From contig CAVQXP010000004.1 of the NCBI GenBank assembly GCA_963717935.1, positions 544,001 to 608,000 of the forward strand: DNA of 64,000 nt, in the 5' to 3' direction. The notes beneath the pieces were generated by a model. It was given only the letters and a program-made list of their open reading frames with translations. It was not told the DNA's origin and ran no database searches. Source of the stretch: Candidatus Eiseniibacteriota bacterium (GTDB taxonomy: Bacteria; Eisenbacteria; RBG-16-71-46). Below, one piece after another: positions 48,031 through 64,000 of the stretch. The position numbers were made by a program, and so were the translations under genes. Position 1 is the stretch's first letter. Every line of letters starts with the position of its first letter.

Positions 48031-51000
48031 TCACGAACAGCCCAGGGATGTCCCGCAGTTGAGGCACTTGTAGCAGGTGCCGTTGCGGATGGTGATGTGT
48101 CCGCAGTTGTCGCACAGTGGCGCGTCGCCCGGGAACTTACCGAGCTGGGCATCCGGACCGCTCTCGACGCCATGCGCCTCCATGCGCGCCCGGACCGCGG
48201 ACGGTGCCGCGGACGGTGCCGCAGCGTGCGTCCCGCCGCCGCCGTTCTCGGCCGTGCGGTGCTCGCGTCCCACGGGATGACCGATGGCGTGGACCTTCGG
48301 CTGGCCCACCAGGCTCTCGTCCACGATGTGCGCGAGATCGGTGCGGCCGAGGTACTCGATGCCGAGCACGCGGAACACGTAGTCCACGACGCTGGTGCAG
48401 GCGCGGAGGTTGTCGTGCCCGTCCACGCGGCCGTGCGGCTCGAAGCGCGTGAAACAGAACTGGTCCACCAGGTCGTCGAGCGGCACGCCGTACTGGAGCC
48501 CCATCGACACGGAGATGGCGAAGCAGTTCATCATGCTGCGGAACGCGGCGCCCTCCTTGTGCATGTCGATGAAGATCTCGCCGACCGTGCCGTCCTCGTA
48601 CTCGCCGGTGCGCAGGAAGACCTTGTGCCCGCCGATGCGCGCCTCCTGCGTGAAGCCGTGGCGCCGTTTCGGCAGGCGGCGCCGGCGCAGCCTGGGCGGC
48701 GAGTTCTTCTCGGGCTCCTCGGCCCTGCGGGTCGTTGCCAGCGGCTGGCTCATCTTGGAGCCGTCGCGGTACAGCGCGACCGCCTTGAGGCCCAACTTCC
48801 AGGACTCGAAGTAGATCTTCTCGACGCCCTCGACGGTGGCCTCCTGCGGCAGGTTCACGGTCTTGCTGATGGCGCCCGAGATGAACGGCTGCACCGCCGC
48901 CATCATGCGGACGTGTCCCATGGGCTCGATGAAGCGCGACCCGTGCGGACCACAGCGGTTGGCGCAATCGAAGACCGGCAGGTGCTCGGACCGCAGGCCC
49001 GGCGCGCCCTCGACCGTGAGGTTGCCGCACACCACGGCGTTGGCCTCCTCGATCTGCGCGTCGGTGAAGCCGAGGTAGGGCAGCAGGCAGAAGCCCGGCT
49101 TCTCGCGCTCGGCGACGCTGACCCCGAGACGGGTGAGCGCGTCGTCGCCGATCATGCCGCGCGAGAAGGCGAAGCGCAGGTGGAGCGTCCCCGGCAGCGC
49201 CTCGTCGATGCGGCGGACCTCGGATTCGCGCAGGCCCTTGTGGAGCAGCACGTCGGGGTGCACGTGCGGCGCGCCCTCGAGCGTGCCGGTCCCGATCGCC
49301 CAGCGGCCGATGCGCTCGATCTCGACCTGCCCGTAACCCAGGCGGCGCAGCGCCGCGGGCACGGACTGGTTCACGATCTTGAAATGGCCGCCGCCCGCCA
49401 GCTTCTTGAACTTGACCAGCGCGAAGTCGGGCTCGACGCCGGTCGTGTCACAGTCCATCAGGAGTCCGATGGTGCCGGTGGGGGCGAGCACCGTGGCCTG
49501 GGCGTTGCGGAAGCCGTGGATGGTGCCGAGCGCGATGGCGCGGTTCCAGCACTCGACCGCGGCCTGGCGCAGGTCGCGGGGCGCGACGCGCGGGTCGATG
49601 GACTGCGCCGCCTCGCGGTGCAGGCGCATGACCTCGAGCATGCTGTCGCGGTTCTCGCCGTAGCGAGCGAACGGTCCGCGGCTGGCGGCGATCTCGGCCG
49701 ACAGCGCGTAGGCCTCGCCGGTCATGGTGGCCGTGACGCAGGCCGCGTAGGCGCGGGCGTCCTCGCTGTCGTAGGGCAGCCCCTGCACCATGAGCGCCGT
49801 GCCGAGGTTGGCGTAGCCCAGCCCCAGCGGGCGGAATTCGTGCGAGCGGCGCGTGATCTTCTCGGTCGGATACGACGCGAAGTCCACCGCGATCTCCTGC
49901 GCCAGGAAGAACAGGCGGCAGGCGTGGCGGTAGCCCTCCACGTCGAAGCTGCCGTCGGTGTGCAGGAACTTCATCAGGTTCACCGACGCCAGGTTGCAGG
50001 AGGTATCGTCCAGGAACACGTACTCGCTACAGGGGTTCGTGGCGTGGATGCGGTCGGTCGTCTTGCAGGTGTGCCACTTCTGGATGGTGTCGTCGAACTG
50101 CACGCCCGGGTCGGCGCACTGCCACGCGGCGCCGGCGATCTCGCGCCACATCTCGCGGGCGCGCAGCGTCTCGTAGACCTCGCCGGTGGTGCGGAACGTG
50201 GTCTGCCAGGGCAGATCGTCCGCCACCGCGTGCATGAAACGGTCGGGCAGGCGCACCGAGTTGTTGGAGTTCTGTCCGGAGACCGTGCCGTAGGCTTCGG
50301 CGTTGAAGTCCGACGAGTAGCCGGCCGCCACCAGGGCCGCGACCTTCTTCTCTTCGCGCATCTTCCAGCGGATGAAGTCGAGGATCTCGGGGTGATCGGC
50401 ATCGAGCACGACCATCTTGGCCGCGCGGCGCGTGGTGCCGCCGGACTTGGTGGCGCCCGCGCCCTTGTCGAGCACCTCGAGGAAGGACATCAGACCCGAG
50501 GAGGTGCCGCCGCCCGAGAGCCGCTCCATGCGCCCGCGCAGCCGGGAGAAGTTCGTGCCCGTGCCGGAGCCGTACTTGAAGACGCGCGCCTCGTTGCGGG
50601 CGAGCTCGAAGATGCTCATCAGGTCGTCGTCCACCGACTGGATGAAGCAGGCGGACACCTGCGGGTGCGAATAGGAATCGGTGGTGGTCAGGACCGCATC
50701 GGCATCGGCGTCCCAGTGGTGGTTGCCGCCCGAGCCGCTGATGCCGTACTCGTGCCACAGGCCGCAGTTGAACCACACCGGCGAGTTGAAGGCGCCGATC
50801 TGGTGCACCAGCATCCAGGCGAGCTCGGCCTCGAAGGCGTCGGCGTCATCCGGGCTCGCGAAGTAGCCACCCTGCTGCTCGCCGCTCGCGCGGAGCGTGT
50901 GCGCGATGCGATGCACGACCTGCCGCACGCTGGTCTCGTGCCCGGGTTTGCCGGGGAGCCCCGCCTTGCGGAAATACTTGCTCACCACGATGTCGGTGGC

Positions 51001-51228
51001 GAGCTGCGACCACGCGGACGGCACCTCGATATCGTCCATCTGGAAGACGACCGAGCCGTCGGGGTTCGCGATGACGGTGCGCCGTCTTTCCCACGCGATC
51101 TCGTCGAGCGGATTCACGCCCGGTCGCGTGAAACGGCGCGGCACGTGGAGTCCGGCGTGGGTGGGTGGAGCGAGCGCGGTGGTGGCGAGCGACGCGGAGC
51201 CCGCGCGGCCGGTGAGCGTCTGGGTCAT
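48031..51228 (-). CDS. nrdJ: Adenosylcobalamin-dependent (class II) ribonucleotide reductase
   Basis: FNSPVWFN, SACFI, TNPCSEY, CNLASVNL, RPLGLG and APTGTI; C-terminal TSCPD-type domain and CDNC...CLNCG..GCS. Confidence 0.96.
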   Translation of the reverse strand: MTQTLTGRAGSASLATTALAPPTHAGLHVPRRFTRPGVNPLDEIAWERRRTVIANPDGSVVFQMDDIEVPSAWSQLATDIVVSKYFRKAGLPGKPGHETSVRQVVHRIAHTLRASGEQQGGYFASPDDADAFEAELAWMLVHQIGAFNSPVWFNCGLWHEYGISGSGGNHHWDADADAVLTTTDSYSHPQVSACFIQSVDDDLMSIFELARNEARVFKYGSGTGTNFSRLRGRMERLSGGGTSSGLMSFLEVLDKGAGATKSGGTTRRAAKMVVLDADHPEILDFIRWKMREEKKVAALVAAGYSSDFNAEAYGTVSGQNSNNSVRLPDRFMHAVADDLPWQTTFRTTGEVYETLRAREMWREIAGAAWQCADPGVQFDDTIQKWHTCKTTDRIHATNPCSEYVFLDDTSCNLASVNLMKFLHTDGSFDVEGYRHACRLFFLAQEIAVDFASYPTEKITRRSHEFRPLGLGYANLGTALMVQGLPYDSEDARAYAACVTATMTGEAYALSAEIAASRGPFARYGENRDSMLEVMRLHREAAQSIDPRVAPRDLRQAAVECWNRAIALGTIHGFRNAQATVLAPTGTIGLLMDCDTTGVEPDFALVKFKKLAGGGHFKIVNQSVPAALRRLGYGQVEIERIGRWAIGTGTLEGAPHVHPDVLLHKGLRESEVRRIDEALPGTLHLRFAFSRGMIGDDALTRLGVSVAEREKPGFCLLPYLGFTDAQIEEANAVVCGNLTVEGAPGLRSEHLPVFDCANRCGPHGSRFIEPMGHVRMMAAVQPFISGAISKTVNLPQEATVEGVEKIYFESWKLGLKAVALYRDGSKMSQPLATTRRAEEPEKNSPPRLRRRRLPKRRHGFTQEARIGGHKVFLRTGEYEDGTVGEIFIDMHKEGAAFRSMMNCFAISVSMGLQYGVPLDDLVDQFCFTRFEPHGRVDGHDNLRACTSVVDYVFRVLGIEYLGRTDLAHIVDESLVGQPKVHAIGHPVGREHRTAENGGGGTHAAAPSAAPSAVRARMEAHGVESGPDAQLGKFPGDAPLCDNCGHITIRNGTCYKCLNCGTSLGCS

Positions 51229-51642: not shown

Positions 51643-52635
51643 CTACGGCAGGCGGACCGAGGGGTGGATGTCCGAGCCGGCGCTGGCCAGCTGGGACGGT
51701 CTGACCACCAGGCTGCCGGTGCGGCTGTAGTAGCGCACGTTCCAGCCGGTCGTATCGGCGCTCAGGCTCTGGAAAGCGAGGTAGGAGCCCGAATGGCTGA
51801 TCCGCGGATGGCGTTCGTCGTCCGCGGTGTTGAGGTTGGTCAGTTCCACGAAGCTGCGGGGGTCGGTCGTGAGGTCCACGAGGTAGATGTCGAATCCGCC
51901 CTGGCCCCCGGCGCGGTCCGAGGCGAAGGACAGGTAGCGTCCGTCCGGGGTGAGCACGGGATCCCGGTCGCGGGCGCCAGCAACCCGCAGGTCCTTGAGG
52001 CTATCCACCTTCTGGGCGGACCGATCGTACAGGTAGAGGTGCGCTTCGCCCTCCCGATCCGAGAGCAGGACGATCCGGTTTCCGGTCGAGTCGGGGGCGG
52101 GCGACCAATCGTCGTACGCGGCCTGGGTGTCGAGGCCGGGCAGGGGCTCGAAAGCGAGTGAGCCCCCGTTGACGAGCCGGATGCGCCGGGCGCCCAGGGT
52201 GTCGCGCACGAAGGCCAGCCGGCGGGTGTCCCCGGTGAAGGCGGGCTCCGTCTCGTGGCCGGTGTGCAGGCCCGGGGTGGAGATCAGCGAGCAGGAGATG
52301 CGCTCGTAGATGTAGATGTCGCTGGTCCCGGGGCCGCCCCGGTCACTCACGAAGGCGATGAGCTGCCCGTCGCGCGACAGCGAGGGGCTCGAATCGGAGG
52401 CGGTCTGGCTGTTGAGGTCGCGAAGGAGCCGGAAGCCCACCAAGTCCGCATCGAATAGATAGATGTCGTACGACCCCGCGTGTCCGCGATCGCTCGAGAA
52501 GGCGATCAGATCGGCGCCCTCGTTGTCGCAGAGCGCCTCTGGCGAGGTCGTCTGCTTCGAGCAGCCCGGGGTGACGAGCAGGATGAGCAGTGCGGCAAGG
52601 GTGCGGCTACGGGTACGAGCCACGCGACCGTCCAC
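51643..52635 (-). CDS. TolB-like beta-propeller lipoprotein (PD40 repeats)
   Basis: Lipobox TPGC; repeats IAFSSDR, PSLSRDGQLIAFVSDR, TPDGRYLSFASDR and DIYL. Confidence 0.87.
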   Translation of the reverse strand: MDGRVARTRSRTLAALLILLVTPGCSKQTTSPEALCDNEGADLIAFSSDRGHAGSYDIYLFDADLVGFRLLRDLNSQTASDSSPSLSRDGQLIAFVSDRGGPGTSDIYIYERISCSLISTPGLHTGHETEPAFTGDTRRLAFVRDTLGARRIRLVNGGSLAFEPLPGLDTQAAYDDWSPAPDSTGNRIVLLSDREGEAHLYLYDRSAQKVDSLKDLRVAGARDRDPVLTPDGRYLSFASDRAGGQGGFDIYLVDLTTDPRSFVELTNLNTADDERHPRISHSGSYLAFQSLSADTTGWNVRYYSRTGSLVVRPSQLASAGSDIHPSVRLP

Positions 52636-53237: not shown

Positions 53238-55334
53238 CTATGCCTCCCCGATCTTCCCGTCGCCACCGGCCTTCGCGGTCGCCCCGGCCTTCGCCTGCTC
53301 CTCGGCCTCCATGCGCGCCCACTCGGCCGGGTGCTCGCGGCGCAGCTGTTCCTCGTTGATGAGCCCTGTCACCCAGGCCCAGTTCATCGGATAGACGTCC
53401 GGGTTCAGCATGTTCTGGTAGACGTGCCAGACCAGGATGGCGACGAGGGCCAGCCAGGCCTCGTAGTAATGCACCAGCGTGGCCAGGTCGAGGACCCACT
53501 TGGGCATCCACTGGAGCGACTGGTTCGCGAACCAGAGCAGAACCCCCGTCACGGTCATCAGGATCACGCCCCAGACCAGGGACCAGTATTCCGCCTTCTC
53601 GATGTAGGTGAAGCGGTCGAAGGCCGGCGGGTCGCGGCGCAACCCCACCAGGTACAGGATGTTGGCCCCGGCCTCGCGCACGTCTCGCAGCCCCGGCAGC
53701 AGGGCGACGAAGGTGCCGCGACCGCGCCGGGTGAACAGATGGGCGACGTGCACCAGGGACGTCCCGACCAGGACGACCGCGGCGACCCGATGGATGAGGC
53801 TGCGCCAGGCGAAGGCCCCCTCCAGGCGCGCCATCCACGAGAACGGCCACGACTCGGGGAACTTGAGCGCGAAGCCGGTCCAGATCAGGGCGAAGAAGCT
53901 GATCATCAGCAGCGCGTGCTGGATCCGCTCGCTCCGGTTGGTGCGCTCGTACCAGCGCCCCAGGCCTCGCTCCGGCTCCACCTCGCCGCGGTAGAGCCGG
54001 TAGTGGCGGCGCAGCTTGCGGGTGAAGTCCAGCCCCTGATGGACGGCCATGCTCCCGCCGAGCCCGAAGATGAGCCAGAGGTAGATCAGCCGAACGTAGT
54101 AAAGGACCGGGCTGCCGGCCGTGGCGATGACGACATGCACGGGGCCCAGCGCCGACCACTTGCCGGCGCCGGGATGGCACTTGCCGCAGGTCTCGCCCAG
54201 TCGTTCCGGGTTCACCGCAGAGCGCGGGTCGCTCGAGGGCAGGATGTCGTGGAAACCGTGGCAGGAAGAGCAGTTAGCGACAGCCTTCGAGCCGCCACGT
54301 GAGGCCAGACCGTGGAAGGAATCACGATATGTCGTGAGTCGGCCGGCCGGAAGACCGTAGGTCTCGCGGAGTCCCTGGGCCTCGTGGCAACGCGAGCAGG
54401 TCGTATTCACCGCGGAGGCCACGACCGGCGAGGCTGGATCGTGGGGCCCGCGGATCAGGTGCTCGCCGTGGCAGTCCGTGCAGTTGGGCGCCGCGGTGAC
54501 GCCGCGGCGCAGCGCCTGGCCGTGGATGCCCGTTTCAAAGGCCGCGAACTCGCGGGTGTGGCAACGCCCGCAGGTGTGCGGGACGTTGGTGCGGAAGATG
54601 GATGACGTGGGGTCGTTCGCGCGCTTCAGGTCGTGGCTCTCGTGGCAGTCGCTGCAGGTGGCCGCGCGCGGGTCTCGCGAGCGCCCGTGCACGCTCTTCG
54701 TGTAGAGCGCGTAGGCCTCGGGGATGGTGATCCGGCGCCGGGTCATGAGCGCGCGGTTCGCGTGGCAGCGGGCGCAGGTGTGCGGCAGGTTCGCGCGGTT
54801 GACCGGCGAGGCGGGGTCCGTGTGCGGGCGGATCGAGTGGAATGGCCCGTGGCAATCCTTGCAGGTCGAGGCCTCGGGGTCGCCGCGCGCGAGCGCCGTG
54901 CCGTGGACGCTGCCCTGGTACTGCCCGGTCACCTGTGCGTGGCAGCCGACGCAGGCGTCCGGGCCGGTTCGCGCGGGCCGGCGCACCTGGTGCCCCGACC
55001 CGTGGCAACCCAGGCAGGCCACCTCGTGCGGGCCCGCGGCCTGCCGGTGGGCGCTGCCGGCAATGGCGGCGGTCGCATCCTGGTGACAGGTGCCACACTG
55101 GACCTGTGGCAGGGCGGTCGCATGCGGCAGGCCCTTCACGCCCCCGTGGCAGGCCACACACGCCAGCCGCCCGTGCGGGGAGGCCTCGAGTTGTGCGAGG
55201 TCCACGTACGCCGTGCCCCCGCCGGAATCGCGCGCGAGGGCTCGATCGACGTGGCAGGTCATGCACACGTCGTTGCCGAGCGGCCCGGCGAGCGCGGGCA
55301 GGGCCAGGAAGGCGGCGAGCAGCGCAGCCGCCAT
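53238..55334 (-). CDS. 13-heme cytochrome c fused to diheme cytochrome b (CbcL-like quinol oxidoreductase)
   Basis: 13 CxxCH counted; membrane domain ERIQH, LIHR, EKAEYW, VHYYEA...WHVY. The start may lie slightly upstream. Confidence 0.9.
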   Translation of the reverse strand: MAAALLAAFLALPALAGPLGNDVCMTCHVDRALARDSGGGTAYVDLAQLEASPHGRLACVACHGGVKGLPHATALPQVQCGTCHQDATAAIAGSAHRQAAGPHEVACLGCHGSGHQVRRPARTGPDACVGCHAQVTGQYQGSVHGTALARGDPEASTCKDCHGPFHSIRPHTDPASPVNRANLPHTCARCHANRALMTRRRITIPEAYALYTKSVHGRSRDPRAATCSDCHESHDLKRANDPTSSIFRTNVPHTCGRCHTREFAAFETGIHGQALRRGVTAAPNCTDCHGEHLIRGPHDPASPVVASAVNTTCSRCHEAQGLRETYGLPAGRLTTYRDSFHGLASRGGSKAVANCSSCHGFHDILPSSDPRSAVNPERLGETCGKCHPGAGKWSALGPVHVVIATAGSPVLYYVRLIYLWLIFGLGGSMAVHQGLDFTRKLRRHYRLYRGEVEPERGLGRWYERTNRSERIQHALLMISFFALIWTGFALKFPESWPFSWMARLEGAFAWRSLIHRVAAVVLVGTSLVHVAHLFTRRGRGTFVALLPGLRDVREAGANILYLVGLRRDPPAFDRFTYIEKAEYWSLVWGVILMTVTGVLLWFANQSLQWMPKWVLDLATLVHYYEAWLALVAILVWHVYQNMLNPDVYPMNWAWVTGLINEEQLRREHPAEWARMEAEEQAKAGATAKAGGDGKIGEA

Positions 55335-55803: not shown

Positions 55804-56367
55804 ATGATCAAGAGCATCTTCGCGTTCGTCGTGCTGGGGGTGCTGGCGGTGGGCGCCGCGTCGCGGGCCGCGGACGCTCCGAAGGCGGACGCGCCGAAGA
55901 ACGACTACGTCGGCACGACCCTGAAGACCTGCATGTGCCACTACAAAGAGTTCAAGGCGTGGTCGGCGACCCCGCACGCGCACGCCCTCGAGACCCTGCA
56001 GGCCACCACGCCCGAGCAGCTGAAGAAGATGAACGAGCGGCTCGAGACCGCGGTGAAGGATCACCCGGAGAGTGATGCCGCGTGCCTGGGCTGCCACGTG
56101 ACCGGTTACAGGACGGGCGGCTACCCCGCGGCTGACTCGCTCAAGAACGCCGCGCTGGCTCGCGTGACCTGCGAGGTCTGCCACGGCCCCGCCAGGAACC
56201 ACCTGACGGTGCCGGCCAACGACAAGGCGGGCCGGAAGGCCTCCATGCTGGTCCCGACGGCCGAGACCTGCAAGAAGTGCCACACCGATGCCACCTCGCC
56301 GAAGTTCGACTTCGCGGAGCGGAGCCAGAAGGTGCACCCCGTCGCCGCCAGGGCGCCCGCGAAGTAA
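55804..56367 (+). CDS. Periplasmic cytochrome c554-like tetraheme protein (3 CxxCH + 1 CxCH)
   Basis: GGAGG SD; signal peptide; YVG..TCMCH...W..TPHAHA, CLGCHVTG, VTCEVCHGP..H, CKKCH...FDF...KVH. Confidence 0.88.
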   Translation: MIKSIFAFVVLGVLAVGAASRAADAPKADAPKNDYVGTTLKTCMCHYKEFKAWSATPHAHALETLQATTPEQLKKMNERLETAVKDHPESDAACLGCHVTGYRTGGYPAADSLKNAALARVTCEVCHGPARNHLTVPANDKAGRKASMLVPTAETCKKCHTDATSPKFDFAERSQKVHPVAARAPAK

Positions 56368-56388: not shown

Positions 56389-59229
56389 ATGGAGACCCGT
56401 ACGGGCCGGCCTGCCAGTCGCGGGCCGGCCCGCGGCCTGTTCACCGGGCTCCTCGCGCTGGCCGGAGCGCTCCTTGCCGGCGCGTTGCTCCACCCGGCGG
56501 CGTGGTCGGCGCCGGAGGCGGTGAAGCCGCTCCCCGGCGCCGAGGACTGCATGGCCTGCCACGAGGCCGGCCCGCCACTCGCGAAGCGCGACGCCGACAC
56601 GCCGCCGCGCTTCGACGCCTCCGGGCTGCGCGCCTCGCCCCACGCGAAAGTGGCCTGCGCCGCCTGCCACGCGGACCTCGAGGGCAAGGAGTTCCCGCAC
56701 GAGACGAAGCCGGCGCCGGTCCGCTGTGGCGCCTGCCATGCGACCGAGCAGCAGCAGTTCGTCGAGAGCCTGCACGGCCAGGCCGCCGCGCGCGGGGAGA
56801 AGCTCGCCCCCTCGTGCAAGGACTGCCACGGACGGCACGGCGTGCTGCCGCGCAACGACCCGCGCTCGCCCGCGAACACGGTCAACGTCCCCGCGCTGTG
56901 CGGGCGCTGCCATCACGAGGGCTCGCCGGTCCAGCTCACCTACCACATCCCGCAGGACTCGATCCTCCAGAACTACTCCGAGTCCATCCACGGCGAGGGG
57001 TTGTTCCGCAAGGGCCTGCTCACGACCGCCGTGTGCACCTCGTGTCACACCGCGCACCACGTGCTGCCGCACACCGACCCGCGCTCGAGCATCGCGCGCC
57101 GCAACGTGGCCGCCACCTGCACGCAGTGCCACGTGCGCATCGAGCAGGTGCACCGCAAGATCATCAACGGGGTGCTGTGGGAGAGCCGCCCCAACGACAT
57201 CCCCGCCTGCGTGGACTGCCACCAGCCGCACAAGGCGCGGCGGGTCTTCTATACCCAGGGCATGGCGGACCGCGACTGCCTGACCTGTCACGGCCGGCGC
57301 GAGCTGCGGGCCCAGGGCGGACGCTCGATGTTCGTGGACACGGCCGTGCTGCAGGGCTCGCGCCACGCGAAGATCGCCTGCGCGCAGTGCCACAGCGAGG
57401 CGCAGCCCTCGCACGCCCGGCCCTGCTCTTCGATCACGCGCCGGGTGGACTGCTCGGTCTGCCACGCCGGGGTCGTGGACTCCTACCGGGAGAGCACCCA
57501 TGGGCGACTGGCCGCGAAGGGCAGCCCCGACGCCCCGGCCTGCCGCGACTGTCACGGCACGCACGGCACCCTGGGGCACCTGCAGTCGGACGCGCCGACC
57601 TACGCGCGCAACGTCCCGGCGCTGTGCGGGCGCTGCCACCTGAGCGGCAAGCAGGCCCAGGTGCGCTATCGCGGGACGGAGCGCCGCGTGGTGGAATCCT
57701 ACGTCGAGAGCATCCACGGCAAGGGGTTGCTCGAGAGCGGCCTCACCGTGACCGCGACCTGCGTGGACTGCCACACCACGCACGGCGAGCTGCCGCACAC
57801 CGACCCGGCGTCCAGCGTCAACCCGGCGAACGTGGCGAAGACCTGTGCCCGCTGCCACCGGGGCATCTACGAGCTGTTCGCGGCCAGCGTGCACTCGCCC
57901 GTGGTGACGAAGACGAAGCGTCCGCTGCCCACCTGCTCCGACTGCCACTCGGCCCACACCATCAACCGCACCGACCGGCAGGATTTCAAGTTCGCGATCA
58001 TGAGCCAGTGCGGCAAGTGCCACGAGGACCTGGCGAAGACCTACTTCGAGACGTACCACGGCAAGGTCTCGCGGCTCGGCTACCTCAAGACCGCCAAGTG
58101 CTACGACTGCCACGGCGCGCACGACATCCAGCCGAACTGGGACCCCCGCTCGCACCTGTCGCGGCAGAACATCGTGAAGACCTGCGGCCAGTGTCACCCC
58201 GGCTCGAACCGGCGCTTCGCCGGCTACCTCACGCACGCGACCCACCACGAGCCGCACAAGTACCCGGCGCTGTTCTTCACCTTCTGGGGCATGACGGTCC
58301 TGCTGGTCGGCACCTTCGGCTTCTTCGGCCTGCACACGCTCGCCTGGCTGCCGCGCTCGCTCCAGTACCGGCGCCAGCTCGCGAAGTCGCAAGCCGCGGA
58401 GGGCGAGCTGCACGTGCGGCGCTTCCCGCCGCTCTACCGCAACCTGCACCTGATGGTGATCGTCTCCTTCCTCGGGCTGGCGCTCACCGGCATGACGCTC
58501 AAGTTCTCCTACACCCCGTGGGCCTACGTCCTGTCGCGGGTGCTCGGCGGGTTCCAGGCGGCGGGCTTCATCCACCGGGTCTGCGCGGGGATCACCTTCG
58601 CCTACTTCTTCCTGCACCTGCGCGACATGATCCGCCGCCGGGCGAAGTCCGGCGTGTCGTGGCGGACGTTCCTCGCCGGCCCGGGCGGGATGCTGCCCGG
58701 GCGGCGGGACCTCGAGGAGTTCTGGCAGTCGGTGAAGTGGTTCGCCGGCCGGGGCCCGAGGCCGCAGTACGGCCGCTGGACCTACTGGGAGAAGTTCGAC
58801 TACTTCGCGGTGTTCTGGGGCGTGGCCATGATCGGCTCGACCGGGCTCGTGCTCTGGTTCCCGACCCTCTTCACCCGGCTCCTGCCCGGCATCTTCATCA
58901 ACCTCGCGACCATCATCCACAGCGACGAAGCGCTGCTCGCGGTGGGCTTCATCTTCACCGTGCACTTCTTCAACACGCACTTCCGGCCCGAGAAATTCCC
59001 CATGGATACGGTGATCTTCACCGGCACCGTGCCGCTCGAGGAGTTCAAGCAGGACCGTCCGCGCGAGTACGAGGCCCTGACGGAGAGCGGCGAACTGGAG
59101 GCCCGGCTCGAGCCGGCGCCCGCGCCCCGCACGGTGCGCGCCTGGCGCATCTTCGGCTTCGTCGCTCTCTCGGTCGGCATCCTGATGGTGCTGCTGATCG
59201 TCTACGCGACGGTCTTCGGGTATCGGTAG
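56389..59229 (+). CDS. 19-heme cytochrome c fused to diheme cytochrome b (CbcL-like)
   Basis: 19 CxxCH counted; RNLH, FIHR, WTYWEKFDYFAVFWG and IIHSDEALLAVGFIFTVHFFNTH. Confidence 0.92.
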   Translation: METRTGRPASRGPARGLFTGLLALAGALLAGALLHPAAWSAPEAVKPLPGAEDCMACHEAGPPLAKRDADTPPRFDASGLRASPHAKVACAACHADLEGKEFPHETKPAPVRCGACHATEQQQFVESLHGQAAARGEKLAPSCKDCHGRHGVLPRNDPRSPANTVNVPALCGRCHHEGSPVQLTYHIPQDSILQNYSESIHGEGLFRKGLLTTAVCTSCHTAHHVLPHTDPRSSIARRNVAATCTQCHVRIEQVHRKIINGVLWESRPNDIPACVDCHQPHKARRVFYTQGMADRDCLTCHGRRELRAQGGRSMFVDTAVLQGSRHAKIACAQCHSEAQPSHARPCSSITRRVDCSVCHAGVVDSYRESTHGRLAAKGSPDAPACRDCHGTHGTLGHLQSDAPTYARNVPALCGRCHLSGKQAQVRYRGTERRVVESYVESIHGKGLLESGLTVTATCVDCHTTHGELPHTDPASSVNPANVAKTCARCHRGIYELFAASVHSPVVTKTKRPLPTCSDCHSAHTINRTDRQDFKFAIMSQCGKCHEDLAKTYFETYHGKVSRLGYLKTAKCYDCHGAHDIQPNWDPRSHLSRQNIVKTCGQCHPGSNRRFAGYLTHATHHEPHKYPALFFTFWGMTVLLVGTFGFFGLHTLAWLPRSLQYRRQLAKSQAAEGELHVRRFPPLYRNLHLMVIVSFLGLALTGMTLKFSYTPWAYVLSRVLGGFQAAGFIHRVCAGITFAYFFLHLRDMIRRRAKSGVSWRTFLAGPGGMLPGRRDLEEFWQSVKWFAGRGPRPQYGRWTYWEKFDYFAVFWGVAMIGSTGLVLWFPTLFTRLLPGIFINLATIIHSDEALLAVGFIFTVHFFNTHFRPEKFPMDTVIFTGTVPLEEFKQDRPREYEALTESGELEARLEPAPAPRTVRAWRIFGFVALSVGILMVLLIVYATVFGYR

Positions 59230-59325: not shown

Positions 59326-59673
59326 CTACGCCACCGCCCGACCCGCGTTGAGGTGCGCCACCGCCTCGTGTTCGCTGTCGTAGAGCGGCAGCGCGCCTGC
59401 GAGGTGGGTCACGTCGAGCAGCCAGCGCTGGGGGCCGGCCGCACCGCAGAGCGCCAGGCCTCCGCCGTTCGCCGATGCGGTCCACTGCGCCCGCGCGAGC
59501 ACGCCCAGGCAGTGCGCGGTCAACACGCGCGCATGGCTGAGGTCCACGATCACGCGGCGGCCCCGCTCGGCCAGCGCGGAGAGCTCGCGCTCCAGCTCGT
59601 CGCAGGCGGCCCCCTCGATGAGGTCCCCGCTCGGCTGGAGCACGACCAGTTCGTCTACCGCGTGGGAGGTCAT
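59326..59673 (-). CDS. STAS-domain (anti-sigma antagonist-like) protein
   Basis: VVLQPSGDL, VIVDLS, GGLALCG, LLDVTHL...LYDSEHEAV; GAAGGAG SD. Confidence 0.85.
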   Translation of the reverse strand: MTSHAVDELVVLQPSGDLIEGAACDELERELSALAERGRRVIVDLSHARVLTAHCLGVLARAQWTASANGGGLALCGAAGPQRWLLDVTHLAGALPLYDSEHEAVAHLNAGRAVA

Positions 59674-59940
59674 GGGTTCGACTCCTTCCGTCCGGGCCCG
59701 GGACTGCGTGGGTTCGTCGTCACACGGTAGGACGGAAGGCAGGCGGGAAAGGTTGCCAGTCCCGTCCGGGCGCCCCGGGGCGGGCCACGAGCGCGGCGCG
59801 AAGGCGCCGGGAGGTCAGGGAGGTGTAAGGCGCTGCGCGCTCCCGTTTCGCGGCGCCGAACGCCGTCCGCTGGCGCGGGTGCTGCGGACGGCGGGCCGGC
59901 GCCGGGCGCCGCAGGTCACGGGCGCGGCCGGCCCGCGACC

Positions 59941-61773
59941 TCAGCCCTGGTGGCACTGCGCGCACGCGGCCTGCGTGGGCCTCAACCGGCCGCCCGCCGG
60001 GTCGTGGCAGGTCTTGCATTCCAGTTCCATCGCGAGATGGGCCTCGTGGGAGAAGTCCCCGCGGAAGCTCCGCACGGTGCGCGTCTTCACGTCGGCGTGG
60101 CATTGCAGGCACGAGCCACCGGCGACCGCGGCCTTCCGATGATGGCAGGGGACACAGCCGGCCGGCCCGAAGCGCACGACTTCCCCGGGTCCGCGCTGCT
60201 CGTGCGTCCGGTGACAGGCGGCGCACTCGAGTTTCGCCTCGAGCAGGTGCGGACCATGGTCGAAGGCCTTGCCCTGCCAGGCCCCGCGCTGTGCTTCGAC
60301 GCCGGTGTGGCACAACAGGCAGCGTCCCGAACTGGCGCCCGCGCGCCGCCAGGGCGACGCGAGCGGGGCCAGTCCCTTCGCGCGGCGCGCCTCGTTCATC
60401 CGCTCGTGCGCCTCGTCGAGCAGGGCGTAGGCGTAGGTGATGTTGTGCACGGCCCGGCCCCGCGAGACCAGCAGGAAGTCGTGCCGCGCGTCCTGCCAGG
60501 CCTGCGGCGGCTCCGGGCCCATCGCGCCCGCGGTCGCCTCGAGCTGGCGCTGCAGCGCGGTGACGCGCTCCGCCGAGGCGCGCTGCCAGGACTCGAAGAT
60601 CCGCTGGTAGGCGGGCCCGTGGCAGGCCATGCAGGAGACGCCGTCGGCGCGCTGGATGACGGGCTCGAGCGGATCCCTCACGGCCCGGGCCGCTGCGGTC
60701 CTGTCGTCGTGACAGCCCCGGCAGGTGACGCCGACTGCGTACATCGGTCCGGGCATGTCGGGCACGCCGCGTCCGCCGGTGCCGGCGTAGAGGCTCTGCT
60801 GCGCGCTGTGGCCCGCGCCGTGGCAGGCGCCGCAGGCGCTTGCGTCGCCGGGGCCCGCGTCGTGCGCGTCGCCCGCCCGGGCCGCCCCCGGCGGCGTGCC
60901 GTGCTCGATGGCCAGGTGGCAGTCCGTGCAGTCCACCTTGTGCTTCGAGACGTGCCAGTCGTGCAGGTAGTCCGTGTCGCCGTAGCGCGCGAGCCGCTCG
61001 GGCTGGTTGTGGCAGGTGAGGCAGTGGGTCTGCGGCACGTCGCCCGCTCCGCGGTTCACGCCCGCGTGACACGCGGTGCACTCGGTGCCCAGGCGCGCGA
61101 CCTCGCCGTGGTCGAACGCGGTGCCGGCGGCGGTGGTGACGCGTCCCGGGACGGTGTGACAGAGCCGGCAGCGCGCGGTGCCCTGGTCCGGCGCCTGGCC
61201 CTTGAAGTGGCACAGCGCGCACGTGACCGGGGTGACCGCGATGTGGGTTCCGACCATGACCTGCGAGTGGCACGAGGTGCAGCGCAGCCGGAAGCCCTTG
61301 CGGCTCTCGGTCAGGTGGGGCGTGTGATCGAAGATGACGCCGTGATAATCGACGCGGCCCTCGAGCAGCCGGCGCTCGTGGCAGCGCAGGCAGTTGGCGT
61401 CGTCCACCTCGGCCCAGGGCTTGGTGCCATAGGTGCCGGTGAAGTACTTCACCACCATCGAGAGCGCCTCGTACTTCTTGCGCAGCTCGGCGCCGATGCC
61501 CGGCGAGATGTGGCAGTCCACGCAGGCGACCTGGTTGTGCTTCGAGGTCTTCCACGAGGCGTAGTAGGGCTTCATGACGTGGCAGGTGCCGCAGAACCGC
61601 GGCGTCGAGGTGCCCAGCATCGCCAGCAGGACGAGCACGGCGAAGAGCCCGAGCGCGAGCCCGACGGTGAGCGTGGCGACGCGCAGGCCGCGGGGCGAGA
61701 GCCGCCCGCCGCCGCGGCGGTCCACCCAGCGGCCGAGGCGGGAGTCGGGTCCGAGGCCCGGCAGCGGCGGCAT
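59941..61773 (-). CDS. 18-heme cytochrome c with NapC/NrfH-like N-terminus
   Basis: Single N-terminal TM, TSTPRFCGTCHVM (CxxCHxM), W..SKH...CVDCH; 18 CxxCH counted; FDH/FSH c3-like modules. Confidence 0.9.
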   Translation of the reverse strand: MPPLPGLGPDSRLGRWVDRRGGGRLSPRGLRVATLTVGLALGLFAVLVLLAMLGTSTPRFCGTCHVMKPYYASWKTSKHNQVACVDCHISPGIGAELRKKYEALSMVVKYFTGTYGTKPWAEVDDANCLRCHERRLLEGRVDYHGVIFDHTPHLTESRKGFRLRCTSCHSQVMVGTHIAVTPVTCALCHFKGQAPDQGTARCRLCHTVPGRVTTAAGTAFDHGEVARLGTECTACHAGVNRGAGDVPQTHCLTCHNQPERLARYGDTDYLHDWHVSKHKVDCTDCHLAIEHGTPPGAARAGDAHDAGPGDASACGACHGAGHSAQQSLYAGTGGRGVPDMPGPMYAVGVTCRGCHDDRTAAARAVRDPLEPVIQRADGVSCMACHGPAYQRIFESWQRASAERVTALQRQLEATAGAMGPEPPQAWQDARHDFLLVSRGRAVHNITYAYALLDEAHERMNEARRAKGLAPLASPWRRAGASSGRCLLCHTGVEAQRGAWQGKAFDHGPHLLEAKLECAACHRTHEQRGPGEVVRFGPAGCVPCHHRKAAVAGGSCLQCHADVKTRTVRSFRGDFSHEAHLAMELECKTCHDPAGGRLRPTQAACAQCHQG

Positions 61774-63021
61774 CTAGCCCCTTTTCGCGGCCTGATCGCG
61801 GAAGCGCTTGAGCACGAACAGCGTCAGCAGCACGTAGAACCAGAACGCCAGGAGCACGTACTTGTGCTGGCGCAGGTTCCCGAGCTTGCCCCGGATCTCC
61901 TGCTGGACCTCCTGGCCCACCGCGCGGGCCCGCGTGGTGAAGCCGGCCACGACCTCCGGCTGCACGGAGTGCGCCGCGGGCAGAGCCTCGCGCAGATAGG
62001 TGCGCGCCTCCTCGATGCGGGCGTGATAGTCCTCGGTCGGGATGGGGATGGCGTCGGCCTTCACGACCAGCGCCACGGCCTTGTCCACCTCGTCCGCCGC
62101 CGTGCGGTAGTCGGACCCGATGCGCCGGCCCAGGTCGAGACGGCGTGAATCGCCCTCGTGGCAGAGGACGCACGAAGTCGCCAGCCGTTCGGGCCGGGTG
62201 GCCTGCACGGCGTGGGCCCCGTGGCAGGTGGCGCACTCGGGGCGCCGGCCGCCCGCCTGACCGCCGGTGGCGGCCGCGGCCGCGTGCGCGCCCGCGGCGA
62301 GGTAGCGCCGCTCGACCGTGTGGCACCGCCCGCACACCTTGATCACCGAGCCCGCGTCGGGCGGGGCGGCGCCGTGCGCGCCGTGACAGGAGACGCAGGT
62401 GGGCGCGCGCAGGTTGCTCTTCCCGGCCAACTCCTGCGCGTGCACGCTCGACTCGTACTGCCGGAAGACGTTGGGTCGCCCGCGCGGTCCCATGAGCACG
62501 GTGTCCCCGTGGCAGCGCCCGCAGGTGCGCGGGACATGGAGCGCGTACGTCGAACTCGCGGGGTCGCGGGTCGCGAGGATCTCGTGCGCGCCATGGCAGT
62601 CGGAGCACACCGCGACCCGGTCGTCGCCCCGCGCGAGCCGTCGCCCGTGCCCCGAGATCTGGTAGAGCGCGTACGAGTCCACGGGCAGGCCATAGGGGCG
62701 CATCCGGGCCTCGTCCGCATGGCACGAGGCGCAGAGCTTCGGGATGTCCCGGCGCGCGGGACGGCCGCGGTAGTCGCGGCCGTGGGCGACCGCGGCGTCG
62801 AGGCTGCGGTCGTCGCCGCCGTGGCACGAGACGCAGCGCACGCCTTCGGGGGCGTGGCGGCTCTTCTCGAACTGGACGCGCTCGGCCGGGTGACAGATGC
62901 CGCAGCGGCCCGAGGCCGCGGTGACGGCCGCCGATCCCGCCGCAGGCGCGGGCGGACCGGTCTGCGCGTGAGCGGTCGGGGCCGTGGCGGCCAGGAGCAG
63001 GAGAGCGAGCGCGGTCCTCAT
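61774..63021 (-). CDS. 9-heme cytochrome c with signal peptide, helical stalk and C-terminal membrane anchor
   Basis: MRTALALLLLAATAPTAHA; 9 CxxCH; C-terminal YVLLAFWFYVLLTLFVLKR. Confidence 0.9.
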   Translation of the reverse strand: MRTALALLLLAATAPTAHAQTGPPAPAAGSAAVTAASGRCGICHPAERVQFEKSRHAPEGVRCVSCHGGDDRSLDAAVAHGRDYRGRPARRDIPKLCASCHADEARMRPYGLPVDSYALYQISGHGRRLARGDDRVAVCSDCHGAHEILATRDPASSTYALHVPRTCGRCHGDTVLMGPRGRPNVFRQYESSVHAQELAGKSNLRAPTCVSCHGAHGAAPPDAGSVIKVCGRCHTVERRYLAAGAHAAAAATGGQAGGRRPECATCHGAHAVQATRPERLATSCVLCHEGDSRRLDLGRRIGSDYRTAADEVDKAVALVVKADAIPIPTEDYHARIEEARTYLREALPAAHSVQPEVVAGFTTRARAVGQEVQQEIRGKLGNLRQHKYVLLAFWFYVLLTLFVLKRFRDQAAKRG

Positions 63022-63025
63022 CGCC

Positions 63026-64000
63026 CTACCTCCGTTCGAGCAGCGCGCCGAGCACGCTGAGCACGAGCCACGCTCCGAGCACGGCAACGCCGGCCAGCCG
63101 GATGCGGCGCCTTCGCGGGCGGGTCTCCTCGCCGCGCAGCCACAGCGGCATGAGCAGCACCGCGATGGCCGCCGCCAGCAGCACGAGCCCGCTCAGCCAC
63201 GCGGGCACGGGCAGGTGCTGCAGCAGGACATAGGGGGCCAGCATGTACCACGGCGGGCGCGCTCCGCCGGGCGTGGCGTAGGGGTCGGCCGCGCCGTGGA
63301 AGCGGAAGGGCAGCAGCGTGGCCAGGGTGACCAGCACGGCGAACAGGCCGACCGTGAGCATGGTCATCGAGTAGACGTGCTCGCGATAGTGGATGGTCCG
63401 CTCGTCGCGCACCGCCTCGGCCCGGCTCAGACCGACGCGCCGCAGCGTGGCGAAGGTCAGGTAGAGGAAGCCGGCGTAGAACACCGGCAGGACCATCAGG
63501 TGCAGCACGTAGAAGCGGATCAGCACGTCCGCATTCACGGTCCGTCCACCCAGCAGGAAGGCCAGCACCGGGCCGGCGATCGGGATCGCCCACACGACCT
63601 CCAGCCCGCGCACCGTGCTCCAGTAGGTGTGCGAGTCCCAGATGAGGAGCCTCCCGGTGAAGTCCGACTGGATGACCACCCAGGTCGTGGCCACCGCGCA
63701 CCACCACAGCACCTCGCGCGGGGCGCGGTACAGACCCTCCCAGAAGAACCGCAGCAGCCGCAGCACGATGACGCCCACCAGCAGCCACGAGCCCCAGGCG
63801 TGCATCTGGTGGATGAACCAGCCGCCCGGCAGGTCGCGCACGATGGTGCGCGTGCTCTCGAAGGCGGCCTCGGGCGTGGGCCGGTAGTAATAGGCGAGCA
63901 GGACGCCCGTCACGATCTGCAGGCCGAACAGGATGGCGGCCAGCAGTCCCAGCGCGCGCGCGCCGTGCGCGTAGCGGGGCACCGGCTCCGCGGCCACGTC
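63026..64000 (-). CDS. Cytochrome b of bc/b6f type (b6 + subunit IV fused), 5'-truncated by window, lacking heme bH ligands
   Basis: LQIVTGVLLAYYYRP, GWFIHQMHAWG, PREVLW, FTGRLLIWD, RFYVLH and PPWY; frame open to the window end. Confidence 0.9.
   Translation of the reverse strand, partial: DVAAEPVPRYAHGARALGLLAAILFGLQIVTGVLLAYYYRPTPEAAFESTRTIVRDLPGGWFIHQMHAWGSWLLVGVIVLRLLRFFWEGLYRAPREVLWWCAVATTWVVIQSDFTGRLLIWDSHTYWSTVRGLEVVWAIPIAGPVLAFLLGGRTVNADVLIRFYVLHLMVLPVFYAGFLYLTFATLRRVGLSRAEAVRDERTIHYREHVYSMTMLTVGLFAVLVTLATLLPFRFHGAADPYATPGGARPPWYMLAPYVLLQHLPVPAWLSGLVLLAAAIAVLLMPLWLRGEETRPRRRRIRLAGVAVLGAWLVLSVLGALLERR

Follow-up and report, generated by a model that had tools for sequence, protein, structure and literature searches.

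The window analysed here, 64,000 nucleotides of a Candidatus Eiseniibacteriota genome (GenBank assembly GCA_963717935.1; contig CAVQXP010000004.1, C4 below, positions 544,001 to 608,000 of the forward strand), ends inside a gene for a bc-type cytochrome b, here called cytb*, in which both histidine ligands of heme bH have been replaced. The loss is conserved among homologues, residues throughout the cytoplasmic bH/Qi half are changed, the gene stands in an operon with a Rieske protein and two multiheme cytochromes c, and no canonical cytochrome b was found in this genome. The likeliest single reading, which we put forward tentatively, is that the module would work on its own as a menaquinol oxidoreductase with one b heme and no Q cycle, delivering electrons to heme wires.

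A cytochrome b fold without heme bH ligands

The gene and its four heme ligand positions are as follows.

63026..64000, minus strand, with a further 159 bases outside the window, up to contig C4 608159: cytb*, identified by PF00033 and PF00032 matches and by its structural model
63800..63802, minus strand: His120 (codon CAC), helix-B ligand of heme bL, kept in 120/120 homologues
63758..63760, minus strand: Arg134 (codon CGG) at the helix-B bH ligand position, the founding change of the clade
63500..63502, minus strand: His220 (codon CAC), helix-D ligand of heme bL, kept in 120/120 homologues
63455..63457, minus strand: Thr235 (codon ACC) at the helix-D bH ligand position, fixed in one sub-clade

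A first-pass annotation of the window had called the reading frame intact; this is borne out by a single unsplit frame of 377 amino acids, although its ATG lies beyond the window end, at contig position 608159. Both Pfam matches exceed their cut-offs, i.e. the protein has a cytochrome b fold, and a predicted model built on a 149-row alignment (replacing one from a 23-row alignment with a pLDDT of 57.5) reaches a pLDDT of 92.8 and a pTM of 0.90, shows seven long membrane helices and is matched by Foldseek to bc1 cytochrome b at a TM score of ~0.7. A 22-residue insertion precedes helix A at the N-terminal end. Equivalences to named bc1 positions come from the cytb* alignments and from this model match, and the roles attached to them are, wherever no paper is cited, those that we take the bc1 residues to have.

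In cytochrome b, the first His of helices B and D binds heme bL and the second binds heme bH. The papers cited below by PMC number were available as partial text, and what is said of them refers to those parts; all four ligands are listed in PMC4122944. The first-pass annotation had read the codons at these positions as CAC, CGG, CAC and ACC, which proved correct, and in the PetB-type alignment that it had proposed, the second His of helix B in spinach cytochrome b6 (6rqf) corresponds to Arg134 and that of helix D to Thr235. Helix spacing in cytb* is b6-like, and the register is also confirmed by an alignment with plant cytochrome b. The altered motifs PPWY and TGRLLIWD, reported instead of PEWY and TGYLLPWD, are both present.

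Conservation was counted over the best 120 of 436 homologues (63-93% identity). Both bL histidines and Arg134 occur in 120/120 and the second Pro of PPWY in 119/120, while position 235 is Thr in 118/120 and Ser in 2/120; a His is restored at the bH positions in none of them. With Arg134 and Thr/Ser235 in 120/120, chance or sequencing error is excluded. An earlier remark that no His lies nearby needs qualifying: on the cytoplasmic side His34 (111/120) and His261 (119/120) are conserved in this branch, being present in 40/42 and 42/42 of the Thr-branch rows.

Stepwise loss in a clade found in two phyla

A family profile (cut at 300 bits; the next score below 315 is 250) finds cytb* in 63/206 Eisenbacteria genomes and in 17/401 sampled genomes of a second phylum, that of the Acidobacteriota record mentioned next, with up to nine candidates per genome scored in the former and up to four in the latter. 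The relatives with names comprise Candidatus Eisenbacteria, a record labelled Terriglobales and an Acidobacteriota record, and the source names of further homologues include Blastocatellia, Polarisedimenticolia, Aminicenantia and one WOR-3 fragment.

Written as the first and second positions of helix B and then of helix D, the ligand states of 60 rows from fetched loci are H-R-H-T (36), H-R-H-H (18), H-R-H-N (2) and H-R-H-G (1), the rest being one masked row, one empty duplicate and one H-H-H-H row. The 103 further homologues are H-R-H-H (89), H-R-H-T (7), H-R-H-N (4) and H-R-H-Q (1), with two partial. In a quick tree, midpoint-rooted with SH-aLRT support only and with four family rows left out (truncated, partial, masked or a duplicate domain hit), 64 family rows form one clade (SH-aLRT 100), within which 34 Thr rows form one sub-clade (SH-aLRT 100); Asn, Gly and Ser lie on other branches. 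The two ligands were thus lost stepwise and not as a pair: the helix-B Arg is the founding change, and the helix-D His was lost later, apparently at least four times. The paired loss described in the first-pass annotation is thus real in that both bH ligands are gone here, but it is the end state of two steps.

One clade member on a long branch, G231 (L172:7982-9001), has all four His, has lost Arg137 and carries the same four-gene operon; its four-His state is possibly a reversion, possibly the basal state. Five cytochrome b representatives that score below the clade core (P0143, P0155, P0202, P0245 and P0265) lack one or both bH His, with HFHL, HHHQ, HWHW and HFHR as the ligand states among them, so that bH loss may have occurred several times.

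Purifying selection on the altered gene

Within the genus (three pairs of GC-rich genes, simple counting method), pairwise dN/dS is 0.19-0.29 for cytb*; the antiporter next to the operon has 0.24-0.31, and the canonical cytochrome b, compared between two relatives, 0.15. On the branch of this genome, cytb* shows 5 replacement and 17 silent changes, against 18 and 26 on the other branches. A pair of genomes that carry a canonical partner (see below) has a cytb* dN/dS of 0.25 and the partnerless pair G126-G117, with intact Rieske, 0.28; other partnerless pairs range from 0.10 (G145-G147) to 0.31-0.38 (the more distant G151 pairs). The dN/dS check for decay named in the first-pass annotation therefore points to purifying selection instead, with the substitutions conserved in 120/120, and its proposal that a cytochrome b without a normal bH site has been selected for is well founded on both counts.

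That cytb* is a decaying gene or an assembly error is exceedingly improbable and, for the family, refuted by the conserved residues and by a dN/dS like that of the antiporter; the fold is confidently predicted as intact, and new invariant residues have been gained. Pointing the other way are two neighbouring respiratory operons that are missing here, an in-frame TAG inside the cytb* match of a relative, G010, and reads of this strain, which were not found (the best sequencing run contains 0.14 of the words). In four runs, including two RNA libraries, the operon is covered by contigs from related populations; expression cannot be read from contig depth.

An operon with matched Rieske and multiheme partners

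The gene order is Rieske, cytb*, nine-heme and 18-heme cytochrome, and the genes overlap or abut in this genome.

Contig C4 608156-608626, outside the window, minus strand, overlapping cytb* by 4 bases: Rieske gene with a twin-arginine-like start and the boxes CTHVRC and CPCHDGRF
61774..63021, minus strand: MHC9*, a nine-heme cytochrome c with a signal-peptide-like start and a C-terminal membrane anchor
59941..61773, minus strand: 18-heme cytochrome c with an N-terminal anchor and an NrfH/NapC-like first domain (CxxCHxM)

All four cluster ligands are present in this Rieske protein. A cytb* locus was fetched for 66 genomes or records, among which 8 named ones may be duplicates. Both Rieske boxes occur in 61/64 loci with at least 400 bases upstream, as well as in 7/8 loci examined separately, and the NrfH-like CxxCHxM start in 44/50 loci with at least 1.9 kb downstream. 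Of the six exceptions listed, four have CxxxCHxM instead; in L120, L034, L137 and L130 (G166, G019, G131 and G149), the first 18-heme motif has grown to CxxxCH and is still followed by the Met. A CxxCHxM start follows 0/23 canonical cytochrome b genes within 2.4 kb. Across the 206 Eisenbacteria genomes, the 18-heme N-terminus (63 strong matches; five weaker ones, below 145 bits, set aside) coincides with cytb* in 60/63 genomes both ways, the three cytb* genomes without a match being 63-83% complete.

The first domain of the 18-heme protein aligns to NrfH (2j7a) with an E value of 7.7e-08 and scores 62 bits against a TIGR03153 cut-off of 134. Of the residues that we take to form the NrfH quinol site, the CxxCHxM motif and the Lys are kept in 38/38 rows; the Asp position falls on Met86/Val87 of the 18-heme fragment, i.e. 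on no acidic residue, with an invariant Glu one turn earlier. A complex prediction of cytb* with 120 residues of this domain and four hemes scored 0.00 against a mark of 0.32 and carries no weight either way.

Both electron carriers next to cytb* differ from their canonical counterparts. At the cluster-hydrogen-bonding Tyr position of Rieske box II, Phe is found in 54/54 proteins paired with cytb* and Tyr in 28/31 canonical partners; the Ser is absent from both types, and box I has an Arg in 49/54 paired proteins where canonical ones mostly have Gly. These 54 rows were picked by a pattern demanding both boxes and give no rate of intactness. MHC9* has His in 55/55 at two non-CxxCH positions at which its canonical paralogue has Met in 21/27 and 11/27 (two of the 27 rows may duplicate others); these His are candidate axial ligands, and His/His ligation would be lower in potential than His/Met. 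From their sequences, the Rieske (Tyr to Phe) and nine-heme (Met to His) proteins look tuned to lower potential, and in yeast loss of the Rieske Tyr lowers the potential by ~65 mV (PMC12954380).

Absence of a canonical partner

The first-pass annotation had also offered a heterodimer with a canonical cytochrome b encoded upstream. Of the upstream genes it wanted inspected, the Rieske gene is present, but a second cytochrome b is not: only the Rieske gene and a divergent Na+/H+ antiporter are found there, the genome (93% complete, 5 contigs) has a single PF00033 match, and tblastn and blastp find nothing in it beyond cytb*. Downstream of the operon, relatives carry what is missing here.

59674..59940, no strand: spacer of ~270 bases; G004, of the same genus, has ~5.9 kb at this place, and G005 has the same genes

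In G004, this region holds a canonical Rieske-cytochrome b-9-heme operon and an 8-heme/NrfC-like/NrfD-like operon. The latter directly follows the 18-heme gene in G004, G005, G010, G018, G019 and G131 and is absent here, and the respiratory island as a whole has been shuffled and trimmed module by module among relatives.

With the canonical clade defined as 59 genomes having a protein of at least 51% identity to that of G004 (weaker matches set aside), a partner accompanies cytb* in 41/63 Eisenbacteria and was not found in 22, of which 15 are at least 90% complete; these partnerless genomes span several genera and three families. The canonical clade occurs without cytb* in 18 genomes. A PF00033 recheck of 10 of the 22 returned only cytb* in eight and one weak, divergent extra match in two; G008 has a split b6-type gene elsewhere. 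Where both operons occur, they are convergent in G004, G005, G019, G021, G013, G131 and G149 and in tandem in G462, G509, G310, G399, G426 and G166, forming one apparent operon in G462, G509, G310 and G399. The two cytochromes b are ~30% identical, and neither module shares its Rieske or nine-heme gene with the other. In G061 (L082:11999-15190), the canonical cytochrome b is fused in frame to an eight-motif multiheme cytochrome. Since the canonical partner accompanies cytb* in only 41/63 genomes and is not found in this one, an obligate heterodimer is unsupported; a facultative heterodimer, or a role without Rieske-quinol chemistry, is possible.

The Rieske boxes are intact in 18/22 partnerless genomes, including this one. 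CPCD-type Rieske genes, with Asp for the box II His, lie at L126:14462-15157, L127:7855-8550, L128:5299-5808 and L177 (G147, G145, G151 and G135); their product is possibly an Asp-ligated cluster protein, possibly a cluster-less subunit. The Asp was seen in none of the partner-bearing genomes examined.

Changes at the two quinone sites

In a comparison of 67-72 family rows with 72 four-His control cytochromes b, the packing residue Gly155 at heme bH is Gly in 71/72 controls and Ala in 49/67 family rows, position 72 changes from Gly/Ser to bulky Leu/Ile/Val, and two aromatic residues are gained, Tyr233 (56/67) and Phe236 (64/67). The Qi acid at position 265 is Asp/Glu in 54/72 controls and Asp in 11/11 linked canonical partners; the family has Leu, Met, Ile or Val there, and this protein Met265. 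The alignment places no heme ci Cys at the ci position of cytb*. The cytoplasmic-side insertion of 22 residues is present in 71/72 family rows, with conserved Glu27, Ser30, Phe35, Gly36, Asp43 and Pro47. Among the 103 basal homologues, Gly155 is kept in 74 and Arg137 in 102. Of the residues on which a Q cycle depends, cytb* hence has the two bL His and lacks the two bH His as well as the Qi acid and ci Cys, and the alignments show that the bH/Qi pocket is remodelled in the clade. The conserved His34 and His261 may provide a relocated heme ligand in the Thr branch.

The periplasmic Qo site combines retained and replaced residues.

63650..63652, minus strand: Arg170 at the Qo Tyr position (TGY to TGR), replaced in family rows and further homologues
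63599..63610, minus strand: Arg184...Glu187, a new near-invariant pair on the cd1 helix, at the Qo/Rieske docking surface
63245..63256, minus strand: PPWY, a Qo motif without the acidic residue, the Glu being mostly Pro in the family

Across the family, the Tyr of TGY is replaced by Arg, Ser, Thr, Lys, Ala or Asn; Tyr is absent from the six commonest residues at position 170 of 72 family rows and from the 103 further homologues. Position 184 is Arg in 72/72 family rows and Val in 61/72 controls, Glu187 is fixed, and an Arg beside bL has become His in 57/67 family rows. The frame of the site is kept (Trp180, Pro302, Trp304, Tyr305 and Tyr310), as are the bL glycines. Qo motifs without Glu (APWY, PPWY and PPWF) occur in other bc complexes (PMC4122944).

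Proposed mechanism and competing explanations

The genome has futalosine menaquinone genes, a bd oxidase and hydrogenase-like large-subunit matches at two places; no heme-copper oxidase was matched in it (93% complete). In the stand-alone oxidoreductase that we tentatively favour, cytb* would bind heme bL only, its bH/Qi half being filled in. Menaquinol would be oxidised on the periplasmic side, where both protons would be released, and both electrons would go outward, into the multiheme wire, as the first-pass annotation had offered as one possibility. The first would reach the nine-heme protein by way of the Rieske cluster; the second would wait on bL and, once that cluster is re-oxidised, return to it via the quinone site, with the 18-heme protein carrying electrons onward. 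A ‘short circuit’ of bc1 that releases two protons outside and takes up none inside per quinol (PMC7908018) would thereby have become the main route. Because bH and Qi are missing, no electron would reach the cytoplasmic side within this monomer, and as no charge would cross the membrane, the yield would be below that of a Q cycle. Little driving force would be needed, which would suit low-potential periplasmic or extracellular acceptors, and the same wiring could run in reverse as a quinone reductase. A lower-potential Rieske protein and heme chain would fit work near the menaquinone potential, where there is too little driving force for a Q cycle; a genome with both operons would then own a high-yield and a low-threshold route.

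Several observations weigh against this proposal. Since neither the Qo Tyr nor the PEWY Glu is retained, we infer rather than observe that quinol is turned over here; in bacterial bc1, mutating Tyr147 causes strong impairment (PMC7908018), and the invariant Arg184 may block the Qo pocket. Homodimers of bc1 with bH knocked out fail to support Rhodobacter growth (PMC4152375), and the anammox Rieske protein Kustd1480, without the Tyr, is still high-potential (PMC12954380). In 4/22 partnerless genomes, all from one related group (G135, G145, G147 and G151), the Rieske protein has Asp for the box II His and no twin-arginine motif, with the genes of this group still under selection (dN/dS 0.09-0.10 for G145-G147); given this His-to-Asp change, G145, G147 and G151 provide no evidence for quinol turnover. 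In two more partnerless genomes, G141 and G155, the Rieske protein is diverged and shows no clear twin-arginine motif. Of the basal homologues, 89/103 still have the helix-D His, a retention that counts against simple drift and leaves room for a single-His heme there. Many partnerless genomes are fragmented, canonical cytochrome b is present in 15/16 second-phylum genomes (in six of them on the same contig within ~15 kb), and none of the listed contigs from related populations bridges the spacer at 59674-59940. Finally, replacements in both multiheme genes are slightly, but not significantly, up on the branch of this genome (p 0.17 and 0.053; module p 0.07).

A rival explanation is that the Qo site is dead too, cytb* being a one-heme scaffold or relay that would hold the Rieske and nine-heme proteins; the NrfH-like domain of the 18-heme protein would do the quinol chemistry, or the module would sense the quinone pool. 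We consider this doubtful, though by no means far-fetched. Loss of the Qo Tyr and Glu family-wide, the Val-to-Arg184 change in 72/72, the bL-side Arg-to-His change in 57/67 and the CxxCHxM motif and NrfH quinol-site Lys kept in 38/38 rows all speak for it, as does selection on the module (dN/dS 0.04-0.13 over the four genes of G145-G147) even where box II has Asp instead of a His that is presumably the quinol-contacting ligand; the box I Arg (49/54; canonical mostly Gly) could fix the Rieske head on Glu187. Yet the NrfH-like quinol site is itself non-canonical, its Asp position being occupied by Met/Val, cytb* retains the Qo frame, 61/64 and 7/8 loci have both Rieske boxes intact, and Glu-less Qo motifs are found in other bc complexes (PMC4122944). 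An asymmetric heterodimer, in which electrons would cross a bL-bL bridge from cytb* to the bH/Qi side of a canonical partner and partnerless genomes would keep a residual or different function, is unlikely. It draws on the partner found in 41/63 Eisenbacteria and 15/16 second-phylum genomes, on the tandem arrangement in G462, G509, G310 and G399, on the aromatic Tyr217, kept in 67/67 at what we take to be the bridge position, and on the altered Rieske proteins, all of which come from partnerless genomes; growth is supported by engineered cross-inactivated dimers that carry a bH knockout (PMC4152375). Against it stand the lack of a partner in this genome and 21 others from several genera and three families, the 5 replacement versus 17 silent changes of cytb* on this branch, the canonical clade standing alone in 18 genomes, the separate Rieske and nine-heme proteins of each module and the mere ~30% identity of the two cytochromes b.

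In an outward-facing bifurcation, which we judge rather improbable, the low-potential electron on bL would not cross the membrane but pass to the NrfH-like heme of the 18-heme protein, which would replace bH/Qi; one wire would thus receive periplasmic electrons more reducing than menaquinol, and the other electron would go to the Rieske/nine-heme wire. The co-occurrence of the 18-heme protein with cytb* (60/63 both ways) and the absence of its motif behind 23/23 canonical genes are in line with this, but in anammox multiheme bc models 26-28 A separate the c hemes from the membrane cofactors (PMC12954380), a low-potential Rieske protein would exert little pull, and the Qo Tyr and Glu are lost. 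Quite improbable, too, is a non-standard second heme, either five-coordinate on a single His beside the Arg in basal members or relocated onto His34/His261, possibly across the dimer interface. Basal retention of the helix-D His (89/103), Gly155 (74) and Arg137 (102) and conservation of His34 (40/42) and His261 (42/42) in the Thr branch argue for it, His-Lys ligation works for bH (PMC4807273), and a new interface heme is predicted in anammox complexes (PMC12954380). However, this protein lacks both canonical ligands and has a bulkier pocket, conservation of His34 is confined to the Thr branch, His261 occurs in 26/72 controls as well, the helix-D His has given way to T, N, G, S or Q on separate branches, and the Qi acid is lost family-wide.

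Neighbouring genes

Outside the operon, the window holds two multiheme cytochromes fused to FdnI-type membrane cytochromes b.

56389..59229, plus strand: 19-heme cytochrome fused to an FdnI-type membrane cytochrome b
53238..55334, minus strand: 13-heme cytochrome fused to an FdnI-type membrane cytochrome b

These fusions diverge around a c554-like cytochrome gene (55804-56367; three CxxCH motifs and one CxCH motif), and in relatives the 13-heme fusion often lies directly upstream of the Rieske gene that precedes cytb*. The FdnI-type multiheme fusion was considered as an obligatory transmembrane partner and rejected: it occurs with 57/63, was not found in 6 and is present in 50 genomes without cytb*. 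A STAS-domain gene (59326-59673, minus strand) sits inside the island and has the same place in G004 and G005. Farther away are an ordinary class II (B12-dependent) ribonucleotide reductase with a TSCPD domain (48031-51228, minus strand) and an ordinary PD40 beta-propeller protein (51643-52635, minus strand). Past the window end, the Na+/H+ exchanger divergent from the Rieske gene (L001:12845-14191, plus strand) keeps its place in the genus and in a few other relatives.

Elsewhere in this genome (C4:1028866-1032681; L174), a DmsE-like decaheme gene, a 523-codon frame without a family match and a six-heme lipoprotein-like gene stand in a row; our guess is that this locus encodes a porin-cytochrome conduit. 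Cytochrome genes with 10 and 6 motifs also lie near the island in several relatives, and a cytochrome with 42 CxxCH motifs lies in or beside the islands of six (L068, L069, L123, L125, L129 and L134).

Relation to known complexes and implications

NrfH, NapC and CymA carry out non-electrogenic quinol oxidation on the periplasmic side and pass the electrons into heme chains. The 18-heme first domain aligns to one of them, NrfH 2j7a, but those systems have no Rieske protein or cytochrome b, and the domain here has Met/Val at the Asp position and scores 62 versus 134 bits for TIGR03153. With the Rieske/cytochrome b complexes (bc1, b6f and menaquinone-type bc with multiheme c), the module shares the fold, the bL ligands, the Qo frame, the upstream Rieske gene, an anchored c-type cytochrome downstream and, in helix D, b6-like spacing; unlike these complexes, it lacks the bH ligands, Qi acid, ci Cys, Qo Tyr and Qo Glu and has a 22-residue insertion and an extra 18-heme NrfH-like subunit.

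Natural loss of bH His in a retained gene has a precedent in the ‘deranged’ bc1 of Acidiphilium and Acidocella, in which, however, the Rieske gene is missing or has lost three or four ligands and the complex is interpreted as non-functional (PMC10715153); here, the Rieske boxes are intact (61/64 loci; a single His-to-Asp change in one group) and multiheme partners are present. For Pyrobaculum cytochrome b, an archaeal case that concerns one His only, it is mentioned in passing that a bH ligand is systematically missing, which is taken to mean that the heme is absent, and cytochrome b sequences lacking His were removed from the data set of the same main evolutionary survey (PMC4122944). The Rhodobacter H212N and cross-inactivated bc1 likewise have a monomer with bL and without bH, but they are laboratory-made and work only via an intact partner monomer (PMC4152375), of which there is none here. 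In the literature searched, no description of the cytb* clade was found; Dibrova 2013 and ten Brink 2013 lie outside that scope and may mention it. The available parts of PMC4683180, PMC5317091 and PMC3509893 hold nothing on bH loss. New here are the natural absence of a partner, with counts, the order of ligand loss, and the matched Rieske and nine-heme changes.

The four heme His have been treated as invariant in cytochrome b, and a clade in two phyla drops bH and Qi while keeping the Rieske protein and heme wires. If quinol is turned over, this would be a natural enzyme built on the very reaction that bc1 suppresses, and its fixed Qo differences (the Tyr and Glu positions, Arg184/Glu187 and the Rieske Arg) would be candidates for the residues that enforce bifurcation. 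If the proposal is true, uncultured bacteria would possess a low-driving-force route from menaquinol to multiheme wires, and the annotation ‘cytochrome bc complex’ would not always mean proton pumping.

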